Notes: generated by a model from the sequence alone, not told the origin. DNA of 53,339 nt from a virus (IMGVR_UViG_3300032321_000329:1-53339), one strand, 5' to 3'. Positions 17,584 through 45,700 are shown, numbered from the stretch's first letter. Translations and numbers: made by a program.

Positions 17584-19183
17584 ATGTGCGTGCCATTGTG
17601 ATTATTGCATTAGTGCTTAGAATTGTTACAGCTACACTGACAGCATTTTGTAAAGCTGACCTTGTAACTTTTAATGGGTCAATAACACCCAACGCCACTA
17701 AATCACCCATCTCACCTGTCTTTAAATTGTATCCATGACCAACAGGCGTACTATCTTTATACACGTCACTTGGTTTCAGTCCTGCGTTAGCAAGTATCTG
17801 TTGGAACGGAGCCATTAATGCATTACGAACAATATTTAATGCAGCATTGTACTCAGCACTACTCGTCTCAGCTCCCAACTCAGCACTCTCATCGAGTAAT
17901 GCTTTGCCGGCTCCCGGTAGTATCCCTTCCTCAAGTGCTGAACGAACTGCACACACTGCGTCATCAACACGGTCATACAACTCTTTTTGCTCAAGGTCAG
18001 TTTGACCACCAACAAAGATTACACCAATGCCACCTGTAAGTGATGCAATTCTCTCCAAGATAAAGTCTTTGTCACCTTTTTTAGTTGCTTCTTTGTGTGC
18101 ATCCCATAATTGTTTTACTCTCTCCTCAATCACAGCCTCGTCAGACTTAGCTGCACTTCTGATAATGACAGTCTTGTCTTTGCTAACAATAACTTTTGCA
18201 GCATGACCCAAGTCACCATAGTTGACATGGCTTAAGTCATCACCTGTCTTCTCACTATAGTATGTTGCACCAACACTAATGGCAATGTCTTGCATCAACT
18301 CGTGTTGCTTGTATCCAAAATTAGGAGGAGGTACAGCTACCACCTTAAGATTCCCCTTAACTGAGTTAGCTGCAAGTGTGTTCACCACATTTGTATTACA
18401 TGGAGAAATTATCAATAACTTTTTTCCTTCAGAAATAATTGGTTTCAATACATTCTCAATCTGTAAGATATTTGCTATCTCCATATCACATACCAAAACC
18501 ATAGTGTCTTCAAAGACACACTCGTCTTTCTTTTGGTCATTTATAAAAAGCGGACTCAAATAACCTCTGTCAATTTTCAATCCCTTAGTCGTCTCAGCAT
18601 ATGTCTCTGCCGTTTGGCTTCTCTCTACTGTAACAATGCCGGTCTTACCCACGTCCTTATAAACCTCTGAGATGATTCTACCAATCTCTCTGTCATTATT
18701 TGCTGAGATACTCGCTACGTCTAATAGCATTGTGCTACTGACCTTTTTAGCTTTACGTCTTAACTTGTCCACCACTTTACTGCTGATGTCCACCATGTGT
18801 CTTAAAACCTCAGTTCTGTTCATATCCTCTTTGATATGCTCAAGACCTCCTAAGACTAATCCTTCTGTTAAGACAATTGCTGTAGTGGTACCATCACCTG
18901 CTGAAGTAGCAGTCTTGTCTGCCGCCTCCTTCATCATCTTAACCGCAAGGTTCTCCGATGGGTCAATCAAGTCAATTGCCTTAGCAACTGTTACACCATC
19001 CTTAGTTACTGTGATACCGTGCGTGTGATGTGGACTCTCAATTAGTACAGTGTTACCACTTGGTCCGAGTGTTGACTTAACAGCCTTTGACATTTTAACA
19101 ACACCACTGATAAGTTTTTTTCTACCTTCTGAACCAAACTGCAAATCTTTGGGTGAGTACCCAATACCTGATGTTTCTACCAT
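17567..19183 (-). CDS. groEL: Chaperonin GroEL (phage-encoded)
   Basis: AVKSTLGPSG, VTKDGVTVAK, AGDGTTTA, DRGYLSP, RVDDAVCAVRSALEEG and GVIDPLKVTRSALQNA; no GGM tail. Confidence 0.95.
   Translation of the reverse strand: MVETSGIGYSPKDLQFGSEGRKKLISGVVKMSKAVKSTLGPSGNTVLIESPHHTHGITVTKDGVTVAKAIDLIDPSENLAVKMMKEAADKTATSAGDGTTTAIVLTEGLVLGGLEHIKEDMNRTEVLRHMVDISSKVVDKLRRKAKKVSSTMLLDVASISANNDREIGRIISEVYKDVGKTGIVTVERSQTAETYAETTKGLKIDRGYLSPLFINDQKKDECVFEDTMVLVCDMEIANILQIENVLKPIISEGKKLLIISPCNTNVVNTLAANSVKGNLKVVAVPPPNFGYKQHELMQDIAISVGATYYSEKTGDDLSHVNYGDLGHAAKVIVSKDKTVIIRSAAKSDEAVIEERVKQLWDAHKEATKKGDKDFILERIASLTGGIGVIFVGGQTDLEQKELYDRVDDAVCAVRSALEEGILPGAGKALLDESAELGAETSSAEYNAALNIVRNALMAPFQQILANAGLKPSDVYKDSTPVGHGYNLKTGEMGDLVALGVIDPLKVTRSALQNAVSVAVTILSTNAIITMARTYEQQQ
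18504..18519. repeat. 16-bp palindrome copy 2 (inside groEL)
   Basis: GTGTCTTCAAAGACAC; encodes part of CVFEDT. Confidence 0.9.
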
Positions 19184-20072: not shown

Positions 20073-20143
20073 GGAGGCGTAAGGCTCACGCCTCCCCCCG
20101 TCCCCGTCTCACGTTCCCCGTTACCCGTACCCGTCCCCCGTTC
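20073..20143. repeat. GC-rich hairpin and (CCCGT)-type C-tract repeats at the strand switch
   Basis: GGAGGCGT-N7-ACGCCTCC hairpin, then six C-runs between 20094 and 20139. Confidence 0.7.
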
Positions 20144-20174
20144 CTTTGTACCTCCGCTCCGCTCCGTTCCCTTT

Positions 20175-20190
20175 GTGTCTTTAAAGACAC
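20175..20190. repeat. 16-bp palindrome copy 3
   Basis: Perfect GTGTCTTTAAAGACAC; intergenic. Confidence 0.9.
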
Positions 20191-20340
20191 TACCAATCGA
20201 GAGAGAGAGGGAACAAGAGAGAGGAGTTAGCACCCGCTCCATCCTTTGCCTGATTAAATTTTTTAACGCCTCATCGCCCGTCTCAATTCCTTTGCTGTAT
20301 TGAAAAGAAAAAATATTTTAAAAAAAAGATAAAAAAAAAG

Positions 20341-20370
20341 TTTGTTGTATTGACTATTGTACTATATTTG
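20341..20370 (+). promoter_or_regulatory. Early promoter, Bacteroidota sigma70 type
   Basis: TTTG (20341-20344), 18-nt spacer, TATATTTG (20363-20370), with long upstream A-tracts. Confidence 0.7.
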
Positions 20371-21084: not shown

Positions 21085-21945
21085 ATGCAAACGGGAATCA
21101 TTTACACCACAACGGGACAAAGGGAGAGAGGCGAGGTCTCAAGTTACCACCGCAAACCGCAACCGCTATTTTTAAATAAGACTAAGCACGCAATTGACGT
21201 GAGCGGTCTTAAAAAATCAGTGCAACGCTCCGCCATTAAGTTCGAGGGCGGGGATTACGAAGCTAAGTTTACAATTGGCTTCGAGGTTGAGAAAAATCAA
21301 CTTTCACGCAATGCGGTTAAGGAATACGAACTATTTTGTGGGTTCGAGCGTGACGGGTCGTGTGGATATGAGGCGGTGACCCACGTGCTCCCTTTATTGC
21401 CATCGGGCAAATGGAGGACGAAAGTATTCGACCTAATGCACAAAGCGGAGAAAATTATCGATGATAGGTTTAGTCCGTCCGATAGGAGGTGCGGAGGTCA
21501 CATTACGATAGCGTGTGACGGGTTAACAGGTGAGGAGCTAAGAACAGCCATCCGCAAAAATTGTGGTATTGTGTTAGCGTTATTTCGCAATCGTCTTAAC
21601 AATTCATATTGCGGTGAGAATAAGAGACTTGAGAATATTTATAATAGCTCACGCTATCAAGTTACACTATCGAAGGGTGATTGTTTAGAGTTTAGATTGC
21701 CATCAAGGTTCGAGAGTGTTAAGCAAATGATGAGACGATACGAGTTAATGTATGAATTAGTTAATTACAGCATAACTAAGCCTAACGGGTCGCATGATGG
21801 CTTTTTAAAGGTTATTACGCCAATTATCCTTTCAATGTACAATGGTGACACAACAAAGGTTGAGGAGGTATTAAGGCTATCAAAATTGTTCAGAGCCTAT
21901 ATTCTTAAGGGTGAGATACACGCTGATATTAGAACTTTCCTTTAG
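21085..21945 (+). CDS. Putative amidoligase (COOH-NH2 ligase family)
   Basis: TIGFEVE, ERDGS, YEAVT, CGGHI and LEFR motifs in the expected order. Confidence 0.7.
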   Translation: MQTGIIYTTTGQRERGEVSSYHRKPQPLFLNKTKHAIDVSGLKKSVQRSAIKFEGGDYEAKFTIGFEVEKNQLSRNAVKEYELFCGFERDGSCGYEAVTHVLPLLPSGKWRTKVFDLMHKAEKIIDDRFSPSDRRCGGHITIACDGLTGEELRTAIRKNCGIVLALFRNRLNNSYCGENKRLENIYNSSRYQVTLSKGDCLEFRLPSRFESVKQMMRRYELMYELVNYSITKPNGSHDGFLKVITPIILSMYNGDTTKVEEVLRLSKLFRAYILKGEIHADIRTFL

Positions 21946-21958
21946 TACGTGGTGGAGG

Positions 21959-21974
21959 GTGTCTTTAAAGACAC
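21959..21974. repeat. 16-bp palindrome copy 4 (before ribozyme 1)
   Basis: GGAGG-GTGTCTTTAAAGACAC-TCTCC. Confidence 0.9.
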
Positions 21975-21980
21975 TCTCCC

Positions 21981-22031
21981 ACTGTAGGGGGATGAGTATC
22001 CCTCCTGATGAGCTCAAAAGAGCGAAACAGT
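21981..22031 (+). ncRNA. Type III hammerhead ribozyme 1
   Basis: ACUGUA / GGGGGA-UGAGUA-UCCCUC / CUGAUGA / GCUC-AAAA-GAGC / GAA-ACAGU. Full core and three stems; predicted cut after A21986. Confidence 0.92.
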
Positions 22032-22074
22032 ATTTTAAACCGGAGGTTTTAAAACCTCCACAAATTTAATCAAC

Positions 22075-22179
22075 ATGGGAACGCACATTTCAATTTTAGA
22101 ATTTTTAGCCATCTCAACACTTTGTGTTTTGGCTTACGCCTTTATCAAAACATTATTTGAAACCTTTAAAAACAAGTAA
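22075..22179 (+). CDS. Small membrane peptide (34 aa)
   Basis: MGTHISILEFLAISTLCVLAYAFIKTLFETFKNK; AATCAAC leader; ends 3 nt before the next ATG. Confidence 0.55.
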   Translation: MGTHISILEFLAISTLCVLAYAFIKTLFETFKNK

Positions 22180-22182
22180 GCA

Positions 22183-22773
22183 ATGAGACAAATTACACGT
22201 GAAATCGTGAACGCCTTTGAGAATAGTCGTTCACTTACAATCGGGAACAGCCGTACAAACGGGGAAAGTTTATGGCTATTCGGCAATAAGATTGCGGAGA
22301 TTAGGAGGGATGGTTTATGGATAACTAATGCAGGGTGGAAAAGTGTCACCACAAAGGAGAGGTTAAACGGGTTGAGTGGAGTTCGTATTCAACAACTACG
22401 TGGTAAATGGTTTTTGAATGAGAATGAGTGGGACGGGACATGGGTACACGTTGACAATTGGAATCAGTATGGGAATACTATTCAGTACGTGAGTCAAGAA
22501 CAATCGGAACAGGTGGCAAATGAGCCCGAGTTTGACGTGACAAGCGAGTGGACGGAGCATGGGTACAGCCGTCCGGTATATTCAATCTTTCATACGTTGG
22601 TGGATACGGAAATTAATTCGGTGGAGTCATTATTGAACGAGCAAGGGATACCATCAAAGCGAATGGAGTCCGACACTGATGGAATGTATCGACCTAATTA
22701 CTTTGTAGTGGTACGCCCTGAGGACGTTGAGAGAGCTGTTAATATTTTAGCTGAGTCGTATTGTATGGCTTAG
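22183..22773 (+). CDS. Hypothetical early protein
   Basis: 196 aa; LFGNKIA..ITNAGW.SVTTKERLNG motif recurs in phage early proteins. Confidence 0.75.
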   Translation: MRQITREIVNAFENSRSLTIGNSRTNGESLWLFGNKIAEIRRDGLWITNAGWKSVTTKERLNGLSGVRIQQLRGKWFLNENEWDGTWVHVDNWNQYGNTIQYVSQEQSEQVANEPEFDVTSEWTEHGYSRPVYSIFHTLVDTEINSVESLLNEQGIPSKRMESDTDGMYRPNYFVVVRPEDVERAVNILAESYCMA

Positions 22774-22782
22774 TAAGTGGGG

Positions 22783-22798
22783 GTGTCTTCAAAGACAC
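22783..22798. repeat. 16-bp palindrome copy 5 (before ribozyme 2)
   Basis: GTGTCTTCAAAGACAC, abutting stem III of the ribozyme. Confidence 0.9.
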
Positions 22799-22850
22799 TC
22801 CGTCCCTGAGTGTATCGCTTAGGCTGATGAGTCCTAAAGGACGAAACGGA
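22799..22850 (+). ncRNA. Type III hammerhead ribozyme 2
   Basis: UCCGUC / CCUGAG-UGUAUCG-CUUAGG / CUGAUGA / GUCC-UAAA-GGAC / GAA-ACGGA. Canonical GUC site; predicted cut after C22804. Confidence 0.95.
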
Positions 22851-22871
22851 AACCACTTAAATCAAATCAAA

Positions 22872-23051
22872 ATGGAAAAAAAAGTAAAACTAATTGTGTC
22901 AATTGACACATGGGACAAGTATGCCGAAATCAATGGCATAACTATTCATGAGGCAATCGAGACGCAAGAAAATGGCAAATGGTTTATTCAAACGAGCGAG
23001 AGTATCGCAAATGTATTAATCAATAACAAAATGGCTGAAGAAACAATCTAA
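22872..23051 (+). CDS. Hypothetical protein
   Basis: MEKKVKLIVS...; ATG follows AATCAAATCAAA. The ORF-track start at 22761 would read through the ribozyme. Confidence 0.65.
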   Translation: MEKKVKLIVSIDTWDKYAEINGITIHEAIETQENGKWFIQTSESIANVLINNKMAEETI

Positions 23052-23062
23052 ATCAAATCAAA

Positions 23063-23260
23063 ATGCAACAGAGCAAATTTTCATTCGAGGCACAAGAACG
23101 TAACGAAATTTTACAGCCTATCATTGATAGGTTGTTATACCTACCTAAATCAGAGTTGGGCACCTACAAGGAATATTTAAAAATCCTTGAGGAGTTTTAT
23201 CCGATTGATGTGCAGATAAAAGATGGAATCAGAATTTATAAATTAAGTAAATCAAAGTAA
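23063..23260 (+). CDS. Hypothetical protein
   Basis: 65 aa with an AATCA leader. Confidence 0.65.
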   Translation: MQQSKFSFEAQERNEILQPIIDRLLYLPKSELGTYKEYLKILEEFYPIDVQIKDGIRIYKLSKSK

Positions 23261-23261
23261 A

Positions 23262-23552
23262 ATGACAAAAGCAAATGATATATGGGAGTGCTCACAATGT
23301 GGGCACCCACAAGGACGACACGATATGTGGTTTGAGGATAACCTATGCGAGAGGTGTTATGATAGGCTCCCGATGTGTAGGGGTTGCAATACGAAGGATA
23401 CAAAAGAAATAGTCGAGAGTAGGTGCGATTCATACGGATTCGGGACGGGTGATTGGTGCGACAAATGTTATGATAGTGAGAAGTACCCATATCGAAAAGA
23501 TAGGTATTTTGATGAGTCGTATGCAGGTGAAAGATTGGAGGATGATTATTAA
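23262..23552 (+). CDS. Cys-rich zinc-binding protein
   Basis: Four CxxC pairs. Confidence 0.7.
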   Translation: MTKANDIWECSQCGHPQGRHDMWFEDNLCERCYDRLPMCRGCNTKDTKEIVESRCDSYGFGTGDWCDKCYDSEKYPYRKDRYFDESYAGERLEDDY

Positions 23553-23569
23553 TTTAAAAATCAAATAAA

Positions 23570-23728
23570 ATGGAGCAAGAATATTTTTTTAAAGTTTACT
23601 ACGAGAAAACTTTTGTGCTGTCGATGATTGCCCACACAAAGTGGGAGGCTATCGACAAAGCATTCTATAAATTTATAGGAGAGCACCCTTACTTAGATAG
23701 GAAAAAATTTAAGGCAATCAAAAAATAA
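23570..23728 (+). CDS. Small hypothetical protein (52 aa)
   Basis: MEQEYFFKVYYEK...KFKAIKK; AATCAAATAAA leader. Confidence 0.6.
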   Translation: MEQEYFFKVYYEKTFVLSMIAHTKWEAIDKAFYKFIGEHPYLDRKKFKAIKK

Positions 23729-23729
23729 A

Positions 23730-23761
23730 TTTGGTTATGTCTAATTTATGTCGTATCTTCG
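23730..23761 (+). promoter_or_regulatory. Internal early promoter
   Basis: TTTG (23730-23733), 20-nt spacer, TATCTTCG (23754-23761). Confidence 0.55.
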
Positions 23762-23789
23762 TTCAATATCAGTTCATTAACCGAGTCCT

Positions 23790-23805
23790 GTGTCTTCAAA
23801 GACAC
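23790..23805. repeat. 16-bp palindrome copy 6
   Basis: GTGTCTTCAAAGACAC between the promoter and ATG 23828; no ribozyme follows. Confidence 0.9.
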
Positions 23806-23827
23806 TGCTCACAAATCAAATCGCTGT

Positions 23828-24946
23828 ATGTGTGTAATTATTATTAAGCAGAAAGGGAAGCACGTTCCCCAAGAGGTTGCAAAGACCTCCGCAAGAATCA
23901 ACCCTCATGGATTGGGTGTGATATGGCTCGACACGTTCGAGGTAACTTATCATAAATCGGCAGAGTACAAAGTACTTGACACAAAAAGACCTTTCATTGC
24001 TCACTTTAGATATGCGACCATTGGAGCAATCAATAAAGAGAACACGCACCCGTTCAGATGTGGGAGCAACAAACAAGAATGGCTTATGATGAATGGTACC
24101 ATAAGTAAATTAGGAGACCACAAGAAAAGTGACTCACGTGTGCTCGCTGAGAACTTAGGGGACATTCCACGTCATACGTGGAAAAAAGAACTTGAGCAAT
24201 ATGGCTCAAGGTTTGTGACCATCAACACGCATAGTCGCACGTATCAAATTTATAACAAAGAGTTATGGGTACAAAAAGATGGTGTGTGGTATAGCAAGGA
24301 CAATGTCCTTGAGGACACGTTGGTTGCGGTGTATGGCACGTTAAAGAAGGGATATAGCAATTACAATCATTACCTAACAAGTTCAAAGTATATAGGTAAA
24401 GGAGCGACAAAAGAAAAGTATCCTTTAGTCATTAAGGGGTTGCCCTATTTAATTGAGAACATTGGACAAGGTTTTAACGTGGAGGTGGATGTGTTCAAAG
24501 TAAGTCCATCAGTCTTAAAAGATTTAGACGCATTAGAAGGGCACCCAAATTGGTATAGGAGAAAAGAGATTCAAATCAAAATGAAAGATAAAACGCTGAT
24601 GTGTTGGATTTATTTTAATATCAGAGAGAAAGGCAACGGGGAGTTATACCATCAAACGTACACGCAGGAACCGAGTAGGGTCAAGTGGTACGAGCAGGAG
24701 GATATAATCGAGAGTGATAGATATGTTAGTATATTCAGTAACTTAGGGTACGAAAAACCAAAGAGTATTTTCTTATCTAACATAGCAGATGATGAGTGTG
24801 CCGATTGCGAGTTTGACATAGAGAATGAGAAACCTATTTGTGTTAATTGCTTTCATGACTTAGAACATGACATGTTTGCAAATTACCATTGTAGTAGTTG
24901 TGACGAGTGGTTCAACGAGGCGGAGGTATTAAGATTTCAGCCTTAG
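23828..24946 (+). CDS. Class II glutamine amidotransferase fused to gamma-glutamylcyclotransferase-like domain and zinc ribbon
   Basis: N-terminal MC, NPHGLG, HFRYAT, NTHPF, MNG and SDS (Ntn-GATase); VAVYGTLKKG..LDALEG (GGCT/AIG2-like); C-terminal CxxC..CxxC. Confidence 0.85.
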   Translation: MCVIIIKQKGKHVPQEVAKTSARINPHGLGVIWLDTFEVTYHKSAEYKVLDTKRPFIAHFRYATIGAINKENTHPFRCGSNKQEWLMMNGTISKLGDHKKSDSRVLAENLGDIPRHTWKKELEQYGSRFVTINTHSRTYQIYNKELWVQKDGVWYSKDNVLEDTLVAVYGTLKKGYSNYNHYLTSSKYIGKGATKEKYPLVIKGLPYLIENIGQGFNVEVDVFKVSPSVLKDLDALEGHPNWYRRKEIQIKMKDKTLMCWIYFNIREKGNGELYHQTYTQEPSRVKWYEQEDIIESDRYVSIFSNLGYEKPKSIFLSNIADDECADCEFDIENEKPICVNCFHDLEHDMFANYHCSSCDEWFNEAEVLRFQP

Positions 24947-24961
24947 GCTTGACTTGGGAGG

Positions 24962-24977
24962 GTGTCTTCAAAGACAC
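24962..24977. repeat. 16-bp palindrome copy 7 (before ribozyme 3)
   Basis: GGAGG-GTGTCTTCAAAGACAC-TCTCC. Confidence 0.9.
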
Positions 24978-24982
24978 TCTCC

Positions 24983-25034
24983 TCCGTATCGGGATGAGTT
25001 GTCCCGACTGATGATTCCTAAAGGATGAAACGGA
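24983..25034 (+). ncRNA. Type III hammerhead ribozyme 3
   Basis: UCCGUA / UCGGGA-UGAGUUG-UCCCGA / CUGAUGA / UUCC-UAAA-GGAU / GAA-ACGGA. Predicted cut after A24988; U-U at the base of stem II. Confidence 0.88.
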
Positions 25035-25053
25035 AAATTTTAAAATAAACAAA

Positions 25054-29000: not shown

Positions 29001-29016
29001 GTGTCTTCAAAGACAC
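29001..29016. repeat. 16-bp palindrome copy 8
   Basis: GTGTCTTCAAAGACAC 6 nt after the exonuclease stop. Confidence 0.9.
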
Positions 29017-29022
29017 TACAAT

Positions 29023-29076
29023 ACTGAGTGGTGACTTAGTCCCAAAGGTCATTGCTTAGTTTAAACAGATTGGGAC
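29023..29076 (+). ncRNA. Predicted pseudoknot in the SSB leader
   Basis: 15-bp stem 29023-29037/29046-29060 (5 G-U pairs); loop GUCCCAA is complementary to UUGGGAC at 29070-29076. Confidence 0.55.
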
Positions 29077-32103: not shown

Positions 32104-33561
32104 ATGGAAGAAATAATTGAACGCATATCAGGGTATGACGACAAGTCAATGTGGGAGTACTGCGAGACACTCAAAAAAATTACCTACCAAACCAAAGAGG
32201 TAAAGAGTGGTAGAGGTAAAGCCATTGAGATACGTAAAATATTAAAGTATGAGACCAACAAAGAAGTATTAGATAGAATCACAAGAAGCTGTGAGTACTA
32301 TAAAGACTTACACGAATCACAAGGGAAGTTTAAATTTAGACCTTATCAAGTTGAGATAATAAACAAGGCATATGAAATTATTAAAAACTCCCGATTTGTA
32401 TATCTTGCTATGGAAGTGCGTACCGGCAAAACACTTACGAGTCTTGGCATAGCTACACTTTGTAATGTTAAAAATGTTTTATTTATAACAAAGAAAAAAG
32501 CAATTGGCTCAATCTCAGATGACTACACTGCTCTTAGCCCATCCTATTATATGCAGGTAATTAACTACGAAAGCCTTCATCTTGTCATGGATGATAAGAA
32601 GTGGGACATGATTATTTGTGATGAGGCACACGGGATGGGAGCATTCCCTAAGCCGAGCAATAGGTCAGAAATTGTTGGAGATTTAATTAGTAAGTACAAA
32701 CCGCTTGTTATTTTACTATCAGGTACACCAACCCCCGAGTCATACTCTCAGATGTATCATCAGGTATATAAGATACCAACCAACCCATTCAGGGAGTTTA
32801 AAAACTTTTACCGTTTCTGCGACACGTATGTAAATGTAAAGCAAAAAAAGATTAACGGATTAATTGTTAAGGACTATAGTCATGGATTGGATACCATATT
32901 GAAAGCAATGGAGCCTTACACACTAAACTATACACAAGAGGAAGCAGGATTTTTGTCAAAGACAGATGAAGAAGTTATAGAAGTTGAGATGAGTGAGTTA
33001 ACTTATAAGTTAATTAAGAAGCTAAAGCGAGAACTTGTGATAGAAGGTAAGACACAAATCATATTGGGTGATACGCCTGTGAAGTTAATGTCAAAAGTTC
33101 ATCAGCTTTGCTCAGGGACTATTAAGTTTGAGAACGGTGAGTCAATGGTGATAGACACAAGTAAGGCTGAGTTTATAAAAGAACATTTCAGAGGTTGTAA
33201 GATTGGTATATTCTACAAGTTCAAAGAAGAGTTGAATGCTCTGCTTAAAGTGTTTGGTAACGAAAACTTAACCTCTGACTTGAGTGTCTTTGAAGACACC
33301 GAAAAGAGTATTGCATTGCAAATTGTCTCAGGACGTGAAGGTATATCTTTAAGAAAAGCTGAGTATTTAGTTTATTATAATATTGATTTTAGTGCTACAA
33401 GTTATTGGCAGTCAAAAGATAGGATGACTACGAAGGAACGTCTTGAGAATAAGATATATTGGATATTCTCTCGTGGAGGTATTGAATATGACATATATAA
33501 AGCTGTTACAAAGAAAAAAGATTATACTTTAAAACATTTTGAACGAATGTTGTCCGAATAA
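32104..33561 (+). CDS. SF2 (SNF2-like) helicase
   Basis: RPYQ, MEVRTGKT, INYESL, ICDEAH, LSGTP, SGREGISL and QSKDR. Confidence 0.85.
   Translation: MEEIIERISGYDDKSMWEYCETLKKITYQTKEVKSGRGKAIEIRKILKYETNKEVLDRITRSCEYYKDLHESQGKFKFRPYQVEIINKAYEIIKNSRFVYLAMEVRTGKTLTSLGIATLCNVKNVLFITKKKAIGSISDDYTALSPSYYMQVINYESLHLVMDDKKWDMIICDEAHGMGAFPKPSNRSEIVGDLISKYKPLVILLSGTPTPESYSQMYHQVYKIPTNPFREFKNFYRFCDTYVNVKQKKINGLIVKDYSHGLDTILKAMEPYTLNYTQEEAGFLSKTDEEVIEVEMSELTYKLIKKLKRELVIEGKTQIILGDTPVKLMSKVHQLCSGTIKFENGESMVIDTSKAEFIKEHFRGCKIGIFYKFKEELNALLKVFGNENLTSDLSVFEDTEKSIALQIVSGREGISLRKAEYLVYYNIDFSATSYWQSKDRMTTKERLENKIYWIFSRGGIEYDIYKAVTKKKDYTLKHFERMLSE
33284..33299. repeat. 16-bp palindrome copy 9 (inside helicase)
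   Basis: GTGTCTTTGAAGACAC; encodes part of SVFEDT. Confidence 0.9.
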
Positions 33562-36305: not shown

Positions 36306-36708
36306 GAAAGAGATAGACCTAATCAGAGAGAAGAAAGCAATTGAATTATTTGTCAGCATCTTTGGAGGGTCGTTTAAAAAGTTAGACCCGCATGATATTG
36401 ACTACAAGGTATTTGACAAAGATAACAACCTAATAGCCTACGCTGAGGTTAAAGGTCGCATCAGAACAATGCACTCAGCTTATCCATTACCTATAGCTGC
36501 AAGGAAGTTAGTTAAACTAATTGACAAAAGAATCACTCCTGTATTAATATGGGCTTGCGAGGATGGAATCATTTATGGCAAAGCTGATAAACTGCAAGGA
36601 GAGATTAAATGGGGAGGAAGACCTCCCCGTGATGGTGCAGTTAATGATAATGAGATGATGGTTTATTATGATAAGCAGAAAGAACTAAAGTATATTAGGT
36701 ACGCTTAA
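36292..36708 (+). CDS. PD-(D/E)xK-fold nuclease-like protein
   Basis: E...IDY...YAEVKGR motif spacing. Confidence 0.55.
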   Translation: MMTFEKEIDLIREKKAIELFVSIFGGSFKKLDPHDIDYKVFDKDNNLIAYAEVKGRIRTMHSAYPLPIAARKLVKLIDKRITPVLIWACEDGIIYGKADKLQGEIKWGGRPPRDGAVNDNEMMVYYDKQKELKYIRYA

Positions 36709-39700
36709 TTGTTCCGTCTGAGTTTCTTTTTCTTGTAGTTCCTCTGTATCCTTGTTCCATATCTTCTATTTTACGAATTTCTTTGTTCAGTTTTTTCTGA
36801 ACTTCTTTTTCCGCTTTATTCTCTTGATACCATTCAGACCTTACGCCAAAGTTTTTTTGATATAATCTTGGATTGTATCTTTTAAGTTCCGTTTCGTTGT
36901 CGTACTTCTCTCCTGTATCAGGGTCAGTAAGCAAGTCATCTTTTTCAGCTTTTTTAGCAGCTCGTTCTTCTTTCATTGCTTGCTTTTCTTCATCGCTTGC
37001 AGTTAAATCAGAAACCTTTTTTTCAATTACATCAATTTCTTCTTGACTTCTTGCCTTCTGTTCTAAGTTATCAAGAGCCTCTAATTTTTGGTCAAGCTCC
37101 ATTTGTTTTTCAGGAGATAGTTGTTTCTCTTTACCTTTATTTTTATCAAGGTCTTTGTAAATGTCATTCATCACAGCCTTTCTAATATCTTTATAGAAAG
37201 GAATAAGACCTGCATTACCTGCAATTTCTAAAGGAATACGCATAGTATTTTCTTTCTCTCTTCTTTCTATAGCAGATTCTGTTTTAGGCTCCTTGGCAGA
37301 TGCGTTCTTGATAATTAAATCAGTTGTTTTAAGCAAAGGAGTAAAAGCTCCTCCCATATTTTGAACGTAATCCCACACTCCTGTTTGTCTGCCTTTTTTC
37401 TCAGGAGGTACTAAAGAGTTTTGGATATTATCTTTATATCTATCATACTCACCTTCTCTTAAAAATCCAAGATACTCTTCATTTGCACGCTCAATACCCT
37501 CGTTAATAAATAGCTTAGTAGCATTTCCAAAGTCACGACCAAACATTATTGATGAGAATGCTGATGCAAAAGCCTGACCAATATTTTGTAATATTGAATC
37601 ATCATCTTCCTCTTCTTCATCATCAAAGAATAGACCCATTAAACCTGTACCTAAAGTCTGTAATACTAATGTATATACCATCATGCGAGTAGTAACGGCA
37701 GCAACCAAAGCAGCACCTTGTTTTTTAGTAAGTGTACCATTGCCAATTGCGGCATTAATACCTGTACGTGCAGTAGCATATTCAAATATTAAGAAGCGAG
37801 TCATAAAATTGTTAAAGTTATTAAACGCTCTCAACCATCCACTTTGATTAGGCTTAGGTGTTCCTTTTAATATTCCCATAAACGCATTGTCAGTAGCACC
37901 TGTAAATACAGAACGCTCATCCGCAGTTGTTTTTGCTTTATTAATAGCATCTTTATACTTTGACATATACGCTTCGTCATTAGCTGCAATCTTATCAAAA
38001 TTAATATCTTGACCTGTAATTTTTTTGAACTCATTTGCAAAAGAGCCAAACCAAATTGGACGCATCACAACCTTATCCGGAGTAGATATTAATGCATCTG
38101 CTGTTAACTCTACACTATTTATGTATTTCTTACCGCTACGATTAAATATTTGTTGAATTTTATTGGCAATATATCCTTTAGCTTTTCCTCCTTTGATTCC
38201 ACTTGCTTGCTTAAGAATATTTGTATCAATTAATTTACCTGATAATGTATCTGTAGGAAAAATTCTATTTGTTTCTGTACTACCAACATTATTCATAATA
38301 GTAGGAGCATCCACAGACATAATAACATCTTTGTAATCATATCCTGTTTTAGCTGCGGCAGGGTCAGAAATAACAGCAAATCCCATATTAGAAGTAAGCT
38401 CTGCTACCAATCTACTTGTTCCTGCAAGTACAGAACGGTATCCCTGCTTGCTTATATAATTAATTGCATCATCTAAGAATGCATTAGATATATAAGCATT
38501 GGTTAACAAGTTGTCAACAGACTCCTCAAACGCATCTCTAACAGCATTAAATATTTGTCTATTCTCTTTTGGCACTCTGCCCTCTTCTTCCATGTTTGAT
38601 ATTGCCTCATTAAGCGTCTTGCGAGCAGTTCTAATTGGCTCAGTCAAGTTATAATCCATCAATACAAACTTAGCACCACGTTGAGCAGAAGCAAATACAT
38701 CAAAGTTTAACGGAGACACTTTACCTGTTCTTGCTATCAAAGATTTAGCTTTTGTAGATGGTCTCATTGAATCGTTATACTCTGTAATAAATGCAGAGCC
38801 TGACGTTAATTCATTAGGCTTAGTCTCATGAAGCACGTTTAAATGCACATAGTTATTTAAAGGACTAATTTTGTCTCCACGAATAATTGCTGCAGTATAT
38901 TCAGCTTTACCTCTAAGAGATTCATTAAGTTTGCGAATATCGCTTATTGCACTTTTTTCTGCTTGATTAAATGAATTAAGTAATTTACTATTGTCAATAT
39001 TTCCTTCTGCATCAGTATATTTATCAAGTATATCTTGTAACATTTCTGCATCCTTTTCTCCAAAACTTGACTTCCCTTCGTCAATATGTTTAATAGTAGC
39101 TTTTAAATAATCTGATGCAGGATTAACTTGCTTATCTCCAACGTTTGATTCATACTCAAGTTGAATCATGTAAGTCATCATCTTAAATTTAGACATCAAT
39201 GTTTTATTCGGGTCAAGTTTAAATGATTGAGCCACTTTTTCTTCTGCTTTCTCTAATATATTTTGAATCTTTTTTAGTTCAGAACTAAATCTTGCTTCTG
39301 CTTCGGCTGATGGTTTTAACAAAGAATTAAATATTTCTTTTGTTTTAAAATCTCCAAATACTTGGTCAATATAATAAAGAGGATTTCTTCTTATCATCTC
39401 AAGAACAGCACCCTTACCTGTAAATAAGTTTTTAAACTTAGCATACAAAGTAGATAATTTAGGAAGTTTCCCTTTGCCAAATGCGGAAGCTAAGTTTTTG
39501 CCTCTATTAATGGCGTTCATTTTCTCAACCATTATCTGAGCATAATGAGGGAAATAGTTATTATTGATATTACTAATTACTTTAAGCAAGTTTTTTAATT
39601 CAGTATTGCTTAATTTATTAATCGCTTCTGTTTTAATTAATTCTTTTAACTTATTAGCTGTTGAACGCTCATCTACAGTAGGTAAACCGCTACCGTCAAC

Positions 39701-42700
39701 ATCAACATCTTCAATCTCTTTAATAAGACCTTCTTTTTCTTCTGCAATTTCTTGCTCAGTCATTTTTTTTGGTTCAACCTGAGGCATAATGTCTGACTTA
39801 TACTTACGCATAATATCAGCTTGCTCTTGAGTAATCTCTCCTTGCTTAAGCATTTCTTTGATGGACTCGGCAAAATCTAATTTACCCTCGTCACCAAATA
39901 CTTTATTCGGAGATTCATTAAACAAATCAGCTAACTCATCTGCAACAGATTGCTCCTCAGCAATAGCATCTAATATTTTTTCAGTTGAATTTTTAACTTG
40001 AGACTTTTCTTTAAGGTCTAATACAGCTTGTCTTTTTCCAAACATATCAACCAACTCTAAGTAACTATCAAGCACTGAGTCAGGAATCAATGAAGGGTTA
40101 ATAGAGAATAATTTATTCAAGTCAGCATATAAACTATCTGCAATACCAATTTTTGTATTAATGTTATTTTTTGCTGTCTTTAACATGCTTCTTGCAAACT
40201 CAAGTTTATTTGCGTATTCAGCATCACCAAATACCTTAACCATGTAGTCAACAAACTTGTCTATTGACTTCTCATTAAACATATCTACGGATGAGAACTT
40301 ACGTAAAACTGTAGCCATTTGCTTGGCTGTAATCTTTCCTGAAGATGCTAATTCCTTAATCTCTTTAGTTAAACCACCACTAACTTGTCTCCATAATTTT
40401 TTAGCGTCTTTTGCTCCTCTCGCCAAGTCTTTAATTTGCTTATTAAATAACTGCTTTTCAGTCATTGTAATCTTAGTAACATCCTGTATTAATCCAAGTA
40501 GTCTTTGAGCCAATGGTGCTGACTTCTCTCTGATACCAAGTTTTTTTCTTAACTCACGTACTAACTTTTCTTTTTGTATGTCAGTAGCGTTTGTATATTC
40601 TGCTGAATTTTTTAAAGTACTAAGAATGCTTTTTAAAGATTCACCTTGCTTAATTAATGAATCAATCTTAGACATTAATCTCTCATATCCCGGAAGCATT
40701 TCTTCAGTAATATTTACTTTACCTGCAGCTTGAGTTTCACTTGCCATTGCCTGAGCAATCTCTTGGCTTGTAAGACCTTTACCTTCTAAGAATGTTTTTA
40801 TAGCACTTTCAGAGAATCCTTGAGCTCTTGCATCTTTGATTACTTTGTTTATTTTACTTGCAGCATTAAGTTGAGCTTTTGTTACTGATTTAATTTTAAC
40901 AGCATTCTCATCAAATACAACGTAATTAGAACCTTTAGTTTTTTCATTTGAAATAGTAGTAGTTGGATACTTTATACCATCTATACCGGCTCTTAATAAA
41001 AATTCAGAAGCCTTTCTATCAGAACCTAACTCATTAGACAAACCTGCGTACAATGATTTTGTATTAAGGTTTCTAAATGTATATAAGTCAAATGCATCTT
41101 GGATATTCTTTTCTGTGGTATTACTATCTGAAGCAACCTTTTTAATTGCTTCTTCCCTACTCATGCCATCATTTACTAATTTTACTACTTTATTTGCATA
41201 TAACTTAGTTTGAACATAGTTTTTTATGTTAGATAATATGCCTGCTTTCATACCAAGTTTATTGGAGAAGTCTTCTAATACCCCTTCTTTTTTAGCCTGC
41301 TTTCTTATTTTATTTTTTACGTCATCGTTAACTTTCTCATCCCAATTTAAGAATGTGTATTCGCTTGGATTTTTTCCTTCATGTATAGATACATCATATA
41401 CATACTTACCTTCAGTTTTTTTATCTTTAGATATTGCATCAGCGTAATATTTTGCTATTTCTTTTATGTTAGTAAAATATAATCCCCAACCAAACTCTTG
41501 AGCACCTTCTCCTGTTCCTACTTTTTCAGTGCTAAATTGAGTTATGTTATAAGGAGTTCCGTGGTAAGCATCTATCTGAGCCTTTGAGATTGGAAATTCT
41601 TCTTTTAAATTCTGAACCTCTTCTGAAAATAATAACTTACTATTATCAAACATGATTTGGTCTTCTCTATCAATGTTCTCAGTTTCAGATAATAATGTTT
41701 TTCTTCTTTCTTCAGGACTTAAATTTGTTCTATTTTCAACATTTCTTGCTTCAACTTCACCGGCTACTCTATAATATAAATTAAAAGCACTCGCAGCTTT
41801 TTTGCCAAATATATCTTCAATAGAAACATTCTTTCCTGTACTGTCACCTAATTCTTTGACTTGTTTTTTTATATCTTTTTTCTTTTTTTCAAAAGATAAA
41901 TCTTTAACTTTTGCGTAACGGTCTTTAACAGATTTATAAAAATCACGTGCTTTTTTAATAGCTTCTTTATTGTCAGGGTACATTGATTTTACATAATCAT
42001 ATACTCTCTTTTCAGAATCAACTTTACTCTTAAATTCTTTTATAATATACTTCATCATCAAAGGAGCATTTGCCTGATTTGCACCACTTTCAAAAAATTC
42101 TTTTTCTTGCACGTAATGTTGTATCTCGTGAAGCATTGTTAAATCAGCTTCAGGTCTATTATTATTATATAAATCTTTGTTTACTCTAATTTTATTTTCT
42201 GAAATACTAAATGAACCAAGATTATTTTTAGCTAAATCTGCAAATGACACTTTTATATCTTTTGCTTCAGGATATGCTTCATATAATTCAGGAGCATCAA
42301 ATACATCAGATAATTTAGCTGACCTAATAACTGTACCATTAGATTGTATTTCTCTTTTTAAATCATTTATATCAAGGTCTTTGAATTTACCATCAGGAAT
42401 TTCATACCTCCACTTTCCATCTAATCCTTTTTCCCAACCCGTAGCTAATCTAATATCTTTTGCAGACATTTTATTCTTATCCATTTCCTCAGCTATGTTT
42501 AAGTTAAACTTAACAGTTGCAGATAATTGTGCATTTTTACCAATCAATTGAGCTTTTGTTTTTCGCTCAGACTTTGTTTGTTTTGTTTCTTTTGTTTTAA
42601 TAGCAATGTCAGATTCCCTTACAGCTTCTCCTTTACGAATAGATTCGGATATATTTTTGAAAAACTCTATAGTTTGCTTGGTATCTTTAATATCTTCAAA

Positions 42701-45700
42701 TGGAATTATTGCTCCATTGGTAATCTTAGATACAAACTCATTAATTAAAGCCGCTATCTTTTGCAATGTAGTTGTATCTATCTTCCCCTCTTGTTGCTCT
42801 AATGCAGCAGTTAATTCAGCAAGGTACTCCTCGTATGAATCAACCTCAGCATATTGGCTTGCGAAGTCCATCAATTGCTTGTTAGAACTTTCGCTTAAGA
42901 TTGATGCCATTCTATTTTTAAATGTCTTAAATGTCTCTACGTTCTCTCCAAACGCCTTAAGCATAATAGCATGAGCCACCTCGTGTGCCACTGTTCTCTG
43001 ATTGGCTTTAGTTAAATTGATATTAATTGTGCCCTTAAAAGAACCATCAGGATTTTTTGAGTACGTAAAACTACCGGCAGAATCACGATTTGCTTGATTC
43101 TCATCCATAGCAGCAACATAACTTTCATTGGTATCGTGTATTACAATTTCAAAGTTTGGAAATACAGACTTTAATGTATTCAAAGCTCTTTGTGCAGAAT
43201 CAATAATAGACAACTTCTTAGCATCTTTTACCTTAGATTTAACTTGCCCTAATGCAGTTGCATTAGACACCAATACACCTTTATTCTCAGCAGTAGCTTG
43301 AGGAGCCTCCTGTTCAGCAAACATTTTCTCCATGCTTGCAATTTGCTCTTCCTCTGATAATGCATCTCTTTCTTCCAATCCTTCAGGACGCATAGTAATA
43401 TCACCTACTTCTTCCTCATCAAACTGAGAGAACTCTTCAGGAAGTAAACCAATTTTTTGCTCTGCAAAAAGTCCTTCTTGATATATTTTATCTACAATGG
43501 CTTTAGCACCCGCCTCATCACCTTTCTCACGAAGTTGTCTTGCCTCTTCTCTCATTTTGTCAATCTTCTCATTAACACCTGAGAAGTTTACATATGAGTT
43601 TTGACCACGTGTCTCAGTAGTCATAGCTCTTCTTGCAAGTGGAGAAAACATACGTGCATGGATATTCCAAGCATTCTCTTCTCCCTTAGGACCAAATGAG
43701 TTACCTAACTCAGCATGACCGTAGAAGTCATGTATAGCACGAAATACATCATTAATTAATAATGGATTTCCCTTAGCATCTTTAAGACCCGAATCTCTTA
43801 ATAAAGGATTGCGTTGTCTTTGCTCTTCTGTTATAGGGTTACTTCCAAATCCCGCTTCTGTAGAGAATATTTTAATACGATTATTGTTTCTCAAATCATC
43901 AATCATCTCTTGAGAGTTAGCATATGGTTCTTCATTATCTACCTCAATAGTAAACCCTGCATCTGCAAAGTCTTTATATTGTTCTAATGTTTCTTTAGCT
44001 AACTCGTCATAAGCTGCTTTTACTTCAGGATTATTGGGGTCATCCTTCATGGCTATATAAGCATCAGCTATTCTTTTGGCTCTTGCTTCGTCAAGTTTTC
44101 TTGTGCCGGCAAACTTTGGTCTTTCGGTATTGAAAACTCTTTGATAATATCCATTCGCAATTTCCTTAGCTTTCGTGAGTGGCTTATTGAAAAGTCTGTT
44201 TCCTGCGATAGGTCTTCCTGTTGTTGTTTTTGTTGGTTCTCCATTTTCTTGAATTTGAGTTGTTATTTCTTGCGTGCCCTGAGGCGTGATGGTTTCTTCG
44301 GTCCCTGTGGTAACGATTTCAGGTTGGACGTTTCCTTCGCCCACTTGCTGCAATCCCACTTCGGGTTGCCCTGTGCGTAGCACGCTTTCACTTGTTGCTT
44401 GCTCTTGAATGGCATCTTGTTCGGTTTTTATTGTTTCTGTTACAGCTTCTTCTTGTAGCTGATTCTCTTGAATATTTTTAATCTGCCCTCTAATAGCGGC
44501 AGCTTTATCTTTACCTGTTTGTGTTGTATTGCCTTCTAACTTTTTTAATTCTTTTTCTAACTCAGTTATGGCATTAAGACTTGGCTCATTTAACTCAGGA
44601 TTCCCTTGTCTTACTTGCTCTTTAATTGAGTTAGTTACAATCTTATCTTGTATTTTAAATTTACGACCTTCATAATCATTTTCAATATCTATTTTGGTCT
44701 TTACTAACTCATCAGGTGTCATTGTCTCAATAAGATTATCAACCTCCTCTGCCGTTACTTTTGCTCCGTTTACTTTATATGTAGGCTTAGCAAATCTTGC
44801 TTGAATAGTAGAGCGAATACCACCCGGCAATTCTGCAACTCCTTCCATTAAAATCTCACCTGTATCCATTTTTTGACCTATAGCCGCTCTTGCTGCTGCC
44901 TCACCTACAGAACCACCAACTGCTTCTATTCCTGCACCTGTTGCTATTGATTTTGTTACAGCTTTTTTTGTTGCCTGACCTACTGCTGATTTTGCTGCTG
45001 ATTTGCCTAATATTTTAGCACCAATTTTACTTGCTAATTTATTTGTATATGCATCAACGGCACCAATAATCGCTCCTCTTGCTACTGCTTTATTCCTTAA
45101 TGAATTAAATTTCTCAGGGTTCTCAAGAATTGCTTTTACATTCTCCTTAGTCATTTCTTTATCACCCAATTCTTCTTGCAATCCCTCTGCAACATATGAG
45201 CCCAATTCCATAATACTTCCTGCCAATCCCATAGCATATGGAACAGCAGAAGTTGCTCCTGCTATAGCTCCGGGTATTGCTCCAACACCTCCTGCTGCTA
45301 ATCCTGTAGTTGCTCCTGCTGCGGCTCCTGTTCCAACACCTGTAATACCTGCTTTTAATGCATCAGTATTAGTTGCCAATCCAACAAGAGAACTTGCCAT
45401 AACTTCTCCGAGATAACTTGGATTATTGGCTATTCCTTTTACAAATCCCCAAACACCGCCACCCTCTTCATCGTAAATTTTATTAAAATCTTGTGCTTCT
45501 TTTGATGTCCCTAAATTTTTAACATTTTTATTAGCGTCAATAAATTTTTGAAGTTGTTCGTCAGTTGGCTTAGTTCCTTGTAATAATAAGTTATCAGCTT
45601 CAGTTGCAGCCGTTCCTTGTCTATAACCTTGAGCAACAGAACGAGCCATGTCATCTATAAAGTCACCAATACCAATTGGAGAATATTTATCAAATCCTCT

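Follow-up and report, generated by a model that had tools for sequence, protein, structure and literature searches.

The IMG/VR virus record IMGVR_UViG_3300032321_000329 (53,339 bases, referred to here as the window; completeness estimate 88%) contains three intergenic cassettes, each composed of a stop codon, a palindrome of 16 nucleotides (nt), called the 16-mer, a predicted type III hammerhead ribozyme and an A-rich leader that ends at an ATG. The genes of the window are organized in two blocks. Leftward genes, among them those for terminase, tail, lysis and GroEL/GroES, are localized left of ~19.9 kb, while rightward genes extend from 20,432 to ~36.7 kb. Small open reading frames (ORFs) open the rightward block; after them come the genes of a Sak annealing protein, a PDDEXK nuclease, a primase-helicase, a helicase and a phosphoesterase. 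The block looks like an early, co-directional gene set. The three cassettes are all localized within its first 5 kb. The large terminase shares 78.7% identity with that of the uncultured podovirus MW202828.1, the closest GenBank relative, and 44% identity with that of the Flavobacterium 'elemo' phages; it is also matched by Cellulophaga, Tenacibaculum and Maribacter phages. The lineage is one of Flavobacteria-type phages known from metagenomes alone.

Three cassettes and their predicted ribozymes

All the elements of the cassettes are read on the plus strand. In cassette 1, the stop codon (21943-21945) is followed after 13 nt by the 16-mer, which starts at 21959 and is separated by 6 nt from stem III of the ribozyme. 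The 16-mer (21959-21974) belongs to a longer hairpin seen in the RNA fold, 21954-21979, owing to a 5-bp extension between G-rich and CU-rich flanks (one G·U). Hammerhead 1 (HH1, 21981-22031) has a predicted cut after A21986 (21986/87) and scores 39.9 bits (E 2.2e-6) with the Rfam model used below. In cassette 2, 9 nt separate the stop codon (22771-22773) from the 16-mer starting at 22783, with 0 nt left before stem III. The hairpin, 22780-22801 from sequence and fold, comprises the 16-mer 22783-22798 and a 3-bp extension (gap −3), i.e., its 3' arm overlaps stem III of HH2 (22799-22850; predicted cut after C22804, 22804/05; 40.6 bits, E 1.4e-6). In cassette 3, the stop codon (24944-24946), 15 nt, the 16-mer from 24962 and 5 nt precede stem III; the hairpin, 24956-24983, adds to the 16-mer 24962-24977 a 6-bp extension with two G·U (gap −1), and HH3 (24983-25034) has a predicted cut after A24988 (24988/89; 35.6 bits, E 3.9e-5). 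The A-rich leaders after the ribozymes reach ATGs at 22076, 22873 and 25054. The coordinates, the layout and the predicted cut sites proposed by an earlier sequence-only reading of this DNA are all correct on the sequence. The folds of the three cassettes have z values of −3.6 to −5.0, and the minimum-energy fold of cassette 3 contains both the upstream hairpin and the complete hammerhead.

The ORF that follows cassette 1 has 34 codons (22076-22180). Downstream of HH1, its ATG is preceded by an extra hairpin, 22042-22059 (plus strand; fold energy −10.3 kcal/mol, z −3.2), and similar hairpins are present 3' of hammerheads in the leaders of four relatives.

The Rfam Hammerhead_3 model (RF00008; gathering score 48.5 bits) was searched over 4 kb, as had been advised, and matched exactly HH1, HH2 and HH3 over its full length (1-54 of the 54 positions of the alignment), though below the gathering score. 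The invariant core claimed at the outset (CUGAUGA, GAAAC, GUH) is present in all three elements: each one has CUGAUGA, GAAA, the A15.1-U16.1 pair and A or C at position 17. The architecture is that of type III, i.e., the core is surrounded by three helices, of which stems I and II end in loops while stem III is the open one. The first pair of stem II in HH3 is a U10.1·U11.1 mispair.

Related phages were searched for the same cassette by scanning IMG/VR for hammerhead cores preceded by the 16-mer, which gave 66 stretches from ~55 contigs of 16-65 kb (loci are designated by L numbers). The hammerheads of the window and of the 66 loci were combined in an alignment, A1; merging of duplicates reduced their number from 102 to 94 and then to 86 distinct sequences (the cassette of L043 is absent from the 86 and was recovered by the model R1 described below). 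The extraction demanded at least 3 pairs in stem I and at least 2 in stem III, the length of stem III being set by the pairing itself. The 86 sequences align without ambiguity. Standard pairs fill 97.9% of the 1182 pair cells, against 72.0% for shuffled sequences and 36-48% when the partners are slid. Changes on both sides are found in 13 of the 17 pairs, with a covariation score of 0.643 versus 0.211, and each of the six pairs of stem I is variable and 100% paired. The stems thus covary, as expected from the selection on structure put forward by the sequence-only reading; its statement that the stems differ yet still pair holds for the relatives at the level given above, the exception in the window being the mispair of HH3. 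The UG start of loop I and the final A of loop II noted in the window recur: of 80 distinct relatives, 78 have a loop I that opens with UG, and loop II is NAAA in 69 of 78 (sequences within the top-12 loop tally).

The pair 10.1/11.1 is non-standard in 24 of 80 sequences (U·U 15, A·A 8, U·C 1), and one G·U wobble is also found. The A·A form, CUGAUGA-AGYC...GRCA-GAAAC, is found for instance at L011:2875-2925, L012:11418-11468 and L018:9884-9936. In the searchable text of Perreault et al. 2011 (PMC3088659), U·U is the only mispair mentioned (no A·A), and U10.1-U11.1 is given as the best-tolerated one, with more activity than the others. Positions 24985-25032 of HH3 share 93.8% identity over 48 nt with the hammerhead of 65 PaP3-like Pseudomonas phage records; the legend of Figure S6 of PMC3088659 lists PaP3 among the active hammerheads with core variation. 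The alignment data support the assignment of the three elements to the type III hammerheads, with a conserved structure. Self-cleavage of these predicted ribozymes would be expected by analogy with a sole proxy, the 94%-identical ribozyme of PaP3.

As a separate observation, stem III is identical in HH2 and HH3 (UCCGU/ACGGA; 22799-22803/22846-22850 and 24983-24987/25030-25034), so that the 2.2-kb fragment between the two cuts could re-form a hammerhead across its own ends. To liken this geometry to that of ligation to circles in viroid-like RNAs is pure speculation; no circular products were found according to the searchable text of PMC3088659.

The upstream hairpin and the proposed cutting of the transcript

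A covariance model, R1, was built from the 86 sequences and run on the window and the 66 loci (708 kb). It gave 145 matches, 130 of them distinct, all with at least 54 bits; there were no matches between E 6.7e-12 and the reporting limit of 0.1. Upstream of the 130 distinct hammerheads are found: (i) the exact 16-mer within 70 nt (104 cases); (ii) the 16-mer with one mismatch (3 cases); (iii) edge or overlap artefacts where the 16-mer is in fact present (2 cases); (iv) an unrelated GC-rich hairpin that ends at the ribozyme, with −9.4 to −18.2 kcal/mol against a locus background of about −3.8 kcal/mol (16 cases); (v) a conserved non-hairpin motif (5 cases). A fixed coupling to the palindrome had been proposed. 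The coupling to an adjacent upstream hairpin is indeed found in 125 of the 130, but the identity of the hairpin is not fixed, since 16 of the 21 cases lacking the 16-mer carry unrelated hairpins. At the gene end orthologous to that of cassette 1 (L010, L013, L040), the ribozyme is kept and the 16-mer is replaced by an unrelated hairpin. These comparisons support the conclusion that the conserved partner of the hammerhead would be a stable hairpin in general, not this palindrome.

The five sequences of the last group (L018:7786, L034:5048, L045:9653, L031:5673 and L020:669) have in common a 25-nt motif ending AAACUGCU that abuts stem III.

The geometry of the module is tightly kept. In 64 of the 86 cassettes, the distance between hairpin base and stem III is −1, 0 or +1 nt. 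Since the hairpin abuts stem III in this way, the predicted 3' tail of the upstream product is only 3-7 nt (73 of 86), in accordance with the earlier proposal that the upstream piece would end in a hairpin. The stem of the hairpin has 11-13 bp in 50 of 86 cassettes. An extension of at least 4 bp is found in 72 of the 107 ribozyme-coupled 16-mers, while 81 of 110 ribozyme-free 16-mers have none. At positions 1-4 of the ribozyme-coupled extension, 113 G·U pairs are counted versus 8 A·C, which points to a hairpin of the sense-strand RNA and not to duplex DNA. Covariation of the extension is clear mainly at position 2 (92% versus 47% shuffled). Downstream, the ATG is 15-30 nt 3' of the ribozyme in 74 of 86 cassettes, and the leader is composed of 55% A, 26% T, 17% C and 2% G. 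Five full records contain 3-4 hammerheads each, clustered within 2-6 kb on a single strand. The cassettes lie between differing gene pairs in different contigs, and the position after the GGCT-like gene is used in at least 10 loci.

The transcription context was examined by a pattern scan, with a consensus which is taken here to be that of the Bacteroidetes-type −7 promoter box. A candidate box, TATATTTG, is found at 20363-20370 (plus strand), 62 nt 5' of the first rightward gene, and the rightward block probably starts at this promoter-like sequence. A second promoter-like −7 box, TAAATTTG, is found at 23726-23733 (plus strand), 5' of a ribozyme-free palindrome at 23790, and the leader that flanks it is conserved. 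The idea of an early polycistronic transcript is consistent with the co-directional, early-looking block, but has to be amended, since the box at 23726 points to two transcription units or more. The scan found no promoter-like box between the upstream stop codon and any of the cassettes, which are thus considered internal to transcripts. The 5' strand of stem III covaries, which argues for an RNA start further upstream.

On balance, the following mechanism is regarded as probable, by a modest degree: the elements would be functional type III hammerheads in a fixed module which cuts the transcript into separately stable, translated segments. The module has four parts, i.e., the stop codon, the RNA hairpin reinforced by its extension, the hammerhead, and ~22 nt of G-poor, A-rich leader up to the ATG. 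Each ribozyme would cut itself co-transcriptionally as the rightward early/replication block is transcribed in vivo. The upstream piece would then end with a hairpin of 11-13 bp, a tail of 3-7 nt and a 2',3'-cyclic phosphate; such an end would be a poor substrate for exonucleases, and the hairpin would have a stabilising role. The downstream piece would begin with a 5'-OH on the folded body of the ribozyme, followed by the unstructured leader, which would be ready for Shine-Dalgarno-independent initiation. Without the help of a protein, the transcript would in this way be divided into pieces of roughly 0.8-2 kb. The hairpin would reuse the 16-nt palindrome that punctuates gene boundaries across the lineage, with 4-6 additional pairs at ribozyme sites.

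Several points weigh against this mechanism. The first ones concern the ribozymes of the window: (i) the RF00008 scores, 35.6-40.6 bits, are all lower than the gathering score, so that a default scan at that threshold reports nothing in the window (the shortfall is attributed to the short loop of stem II and the longer loop I, the core not being responsible); (ii) stem III is not formed in the minimum-energy folds of cassettes 1 and 2, where the upstream hairpin occupies two stem III bases (cassette 1) or overlaps stem III by its extension (cassette 2), and could thus compete with the ribozyme instead of helping it. Others concern the statistics: (iii) the CUGAUGA core and the 16-mer are fixed by the search pattern, and the minimum pairing demanded at extraction means that the pairing statistics are partly built in; (iv) the relatives share descent, hence the counts overstate the number of events; (v) in the extension, positions 1, 3 and 4 already reach 75-81% in the shuffled control, owing to the G-rich and C/U-rich flanks; (vi) a strong upstream hairpin is absent in 5 of the 130 hammerheads. 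Finally, (vii) no cultured phage with the cassette was found among GenBank phages at E ≤ 1, and (viii) that RNA is stabilised by a short tail with a cyclic phosphate is known from the 3' exonucleases of other bacteria, not of Flavobacteria.

A serious alternative, to which a rather low probability is nevertheless given, is that the hairpin acts mainly as a folding insulator or buffer, i.e., that it shields the ribozyme from the upstream coding RNA and from terminating ribosomes and is not a protector of the 3' end; it would possibly stack on the short stem III. This role agrees with the contact of hairpin and stem III within one nucleotide described above and with the length of stem III, 3-5 bp in 74 of 86 cassettes. 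It also agrees with the position of the stop codon, which precedes the ribozyme-coupled 16-mer by 9-17 nt, versus 0-4 nt at 25 ribozyme-free sites; at the larger distance a terminating ribosome would stay off the ribozyme. Any stable hairpin would suffice for this purpose. However, insulation leaves unexplained why the hairpin is constantly on the 5' side, as near to the cut as the fold permits, and the competition with stem III predicted for cassettes 1 and 2 does not favour it either. The two roles are compatible and could coexist.

Distribution of the palindrome

With up to 2 mismatches, the 16-mer is found at 9 sites of the window, against 0.22 matches in shuffled sequences (each palindromic site matches on both strands, i.e., 18 matches mean 9 sites). 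Three copies accompany a ribozyme, three are intergenic without ribozyme and three are inside ORFs, also without ribozyme. In the loci, the exact 16-mer is found at 277 distinct sites; a hammerhead core lies no more than 75 nt away at 107 of them (39%), but not at the other 170. The palindrome is therefore not confined to ribozyme sites: the ribozyme is missing at 6 of the 9 copies of the window and at these 170 of the 277 sites. Among the 170, 52 are inside ORFs of at least 100 codons (19% of all 277), some of them antisense. Five full records have 10-15 sites each and the reversed control pattern has 0.

Among the intergenic copies without ribozyme, 23790-23805 (plus strand) is 22 nt 5' of the ATG of a GATase/GGCT-like gene and is carried by an internal loop and a short lower stem. 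By eye, this lower stem changes among relatives but keeps its complementarity, in six versions (GAG/CTC, GAGG/CCTC, GGG/CCC, GTAG/CTAC, ATGG/CCAT and GGAT/ATCC). The whole leader, 23726-23827, is conserved, with the promoter-like box, ~55 nt that recur in many relatives, and then the palindrome. The copy 29001-29016 (plus strand) is 6 nt past the stop codon of the PDDEXK-like exonuclease gene. Directly after it, an imperfect 15-bp hairpin is localized at ~29023-29060, for which no Rfam family match was found; in L065 the palindrome is followed by a similar sequence. A decayed fourth hammerhead at this place was considered and rejected, since folding gives a plain 15-bp hairpin and Rfam no match. 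The third copy, 20175-20190, is symmetric and without assigned strand; it lies where the leftward and rightward blocks diverge, beside a GAGA-rich tract. In this region (20100-20260), C-rich repeats are on one side of the palindrome and the GAGA-rich tract is on the other, a layout found in several relatives; the region may serve in control or replication.

The copies inside ORFs are at 3588-3603 (minus strand), in the large terminase, where the residues differ from those of MW202828.1; at 18504-18519 (plus strand), in a GroEL-like ORF whose gene is on the minus strand; and at 33284-33299 (minus strand), in a helicase ORF whose gene is on the plus strand. In the last two, the CA-centred reading is antisense.

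Two classical explanations of the palindrome were rejected. The first is a host repeat comparable to the repetitive extragenic palindromic (REP) sequences: among the matches listed, which include at least 120 bacterial-genome stretches, nearly all are single matches in unrelated taxa, and the sole multi-copy bacterial-genome contig is phage-like, with 56 kb. The second is an intrinsic terminator: there is no T-run on the sense strand after the palindromes, and a T-run was flagged at the 29001 palindrome alone, in the antisense direction. The 16-mers were not found in the text of the searchable literature.

MW202828.1, the closest relative in GenBank, carries a variant of the 16-mer peculiar to it, in 14 exact copies. 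The outer arms are those of the 16-mer of the window, while one inner pair is swapped on both sides (U-A to G-C), with a UUAA loop. At least 9 of the 14 copies are, by eye, in a stop-palindrome-ATG position between early genes. In this genome (L194 and L071), the copies, including those at 44541, 44808, 45596, 45886, 47653 and 48929, are mostly 3 nt after the stop codon and 16-23 nt before the ATG. Neither the 16-mer of the window nor any hammerhead was found in MW202828.1, and 0 stretches of IMG/VR couple the 16-mer of this type to a hammerhead. In the Flavobacterium 'elemo' phage, a single hammerhead is localized in the leader of the first early gene, and there is no dispersed palindrome. 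In more distant IMG/VR relatives, hammerheads are coupled to hairpins with the same arms and varied inner bases, with several variants per genome; L206 and L210 have six different inner hexamers each, several of which break the inner pairs. Matches within ORFs that are due to chance, as at L196, L197, L201 and L205 among these further loci, were not counted as cassettes.

This distribution raises the question of a trans-acting factor. The GUGUC...GACAC hairpin would first be a site for a phage RNA-binding regulator or nuclease marking every intercistronic junction, and the hammerheads would be an addition. The exactness of the 16-mer at its 277 sites, 170 of them ribozyme-free, the 10-15 sites of each full record versus 0 for the reversed control, and the compensatory variant of MW202828.1, present 14 times without hammerhead, are in favour of such a factor, and so is the rejection of a host repeat on the matches listed. 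Furthermore, the ribozyme-free 16-mer is 17-23 nt before the ATG in 50 of 95 cases. At ribozyme-free sites the sense-strand centres CA (71) and TA (20) together clearly outnumber TG (20), and at ribozyme-coupled sites the centre is CA (86) or TA (20) and once TG, with the reservation that 59 of the 277 sites are unassigned and that the search pattern excluded TG for the index cassettes. On the other hand, 29 ORFs of the window compared with PHROGs or Pfam, two of them also in Atlas, gave no candidate for an RNA-binding protein or nuclease; the central six bases differ between copies of a single genome and some inner pairs are broken (L206, L210), which makes a strict sequence reading doubtful; 52 ribozyme-free sites are inside ORFs, some antisense; and the exactness may stem from shared descent or gene conversion. 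The trans-acting factor is thus regarded as doubtful, on a par with the insulator. A combined version can tentatively be formulated, with a low probability: the GUGUC-arm hairpin would be a lineage-wide punctuation read on the mRNA by a dedicated putative factor that cuts or protects every junction, the hammerheads would be its protein-free version for the first few kb of the early block, before phage protein exists, and the lineage of MW202828.1 would rely on the factor alone.

It is improbable that the palindrome acts as DNA, i.e., as a promoter element, a replication site or an operator bound by a dimeric regulator, and touches the ribozyme only incidentally. The palindrome is a perfect one of 16 bp, a copy is localized in the divergent region beside the GAGA-rich tract in an arrangement conserved in relatives, other copies are inside ORFs, and the ribozyme-free copies have no stem extension. 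Nevertheless, the orientation tracks gene direction, the flanks at ribozyme sites pair with the excess of G·U over A·C that fits sense-strand RNA, and a transcription start at or after the palindrome would lose the 5' strand of stem III, yet this strand covaries. The 3126-amino-acid (aa) ORF (36695-46075, minus strand) was considered as an N4- or crAss-like virion RNA polymerase for which the palindromes would be hairpin promoters. This is not supported: the ORF has the LPD23, SprT-like and ADP-ribosyltransferase-like (ART-PolyVal) domains of «polyvalent proteins», no polymerase match and no PDB relative by sequence.

Finally, selfish, mobile or recombination-spread cassettes without benefit to the phage are highly improbable: although the gene pairs that flank the cassettes differ from contig to contig, HH3 shares 94% identity with a hammerhead of unrelated Pseudomonas phages, and the Sak-type annealing and PDDEXK nuclease proteins could recombine short repeats, the positions are often syntenic (e.g., after the GGCT-like gene), the compensatory divergence of the stems points to purifying selection on the fold, and the distances to the stop and start codons vary little.

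Some other features of the window and its relatives can be mentioned. The 286-aa ORF at 21085-21945 resembles phage clusters in which 12% of the members have Amidoligase_2 (a weak Atlas lead), and the 372-aa ORF at 23828-24946 has a class-II amidotransferase-like part and a GGACT (gamma-glutamyl cyclotransferase-like) domain; together they may be a peptide-modifying gene set. WTJX01000555.1 (L093, L129; 56,458 bases), binned in a Cytophagales metagenome-assembled genome, carries the 16-mer at least 5 times, together with one hammerhead; since it looks like a phage of the lineage, the Cytophagales bin is a weak hint on the host.

Known systems and significance

The proposed cutting of the transcript can be compared with several known systems. 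In the early mRNA of T7, intercistronic cuts at RNase III sites leave a 3' hairpin on the upstream message, a feature which would be shared here. In T7, a host protein cuts within the duplex and leaves a 5'-phosphate and a 3'-OH, whereas the adjacent ribozyme would cut outside the hairpin and leave a 5'-OH and a cyclic phosphate. The REP palindromes of enterobacteria are dispersed and intergenic and can shield the upstream mRNA from 3' decay, but they are chromosomal repeats of the host; the 16-mer is phage-borne, is no bacterial-genome repeat among the matches listed, and is found in ORFs for 19% and coupled to a ribozyme for 39% of its sites. RiboJ is an engineered hammerhead followed by a hairpin, which removes the upstream context and standardises the 5' untranslated region. 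Here the hairpin is upstream, with a downstream hairpin too in cassette 1 and in few relatives.

Among natural hammerheads, those of PaP3 and its relatives (Bruynoghevirus) resemble HH3: they are of type III, with U10.1·U11.1, the same stem II and loop II and nearly the same stem I as HH3, and that of PaP3 is directly before an ORF, like the cassettes. Unlike them, the PaP3 hammerhead is in single copy near the end of the genome, has a weak upstream hairpin (−7 kcal/mol) and no 16-mer. The host and gene content of PaP3 are unrelated to those of this phage.

Phage intergenic hammerheads, several per operon, and the hypothesis of processing are already known: according to the searchable text of PMC3088659, several hammerheads are close together between prophage genes, long phage transcripts are proposed to be processed to operon- or gene-length mRNAs, and in vitro cleavage was obtained for three such arrangements. 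The processing idea of the sequence-only reading is therefore kept in outline, but the cutting of an mRNA by several hammerheads was already in print. Compared with the prophage hammerheads of that text, those described here are fused to a 5'-adjacent hairpin, usually built on the dispersed 16-nt palindrome, and belong to Flavobacteria-type phages known from metagenomes alone. An upstream hairpin or terminator is not discussed in the main text of PMC3088659, whose supplementary alignments were outside the search. More generally, no description of a hairpin-hammerhead module was found in the literature search, which did not cover subscription journals and supplements. The near-obligate 5' hairpin, the minimal-tail geometry, the construction on a dispersed palindrome and the lineage-specific palindrome variants appear undescribed. 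A 2019 review (PMC6765202) states, in its searchable part, that more work is needed to define the purpose of genome-encoded hammerheads.

In this respect, the lineage supplies more than 100 natural cassettes of fixed geometry, i.e., hairpin, ribozyme, G-poor leader and ATG. Ribozymes of this kind are missed at the standard Rfam thresholds. A family of phage-borne intercistronic palindromes is also brought to light. The fixed geometry leads to a concrete prediction: the upstream message would have a hairpin-capped 3' end with a cyclic phosphate, and the downstream message would have a structured 5'-OH end.

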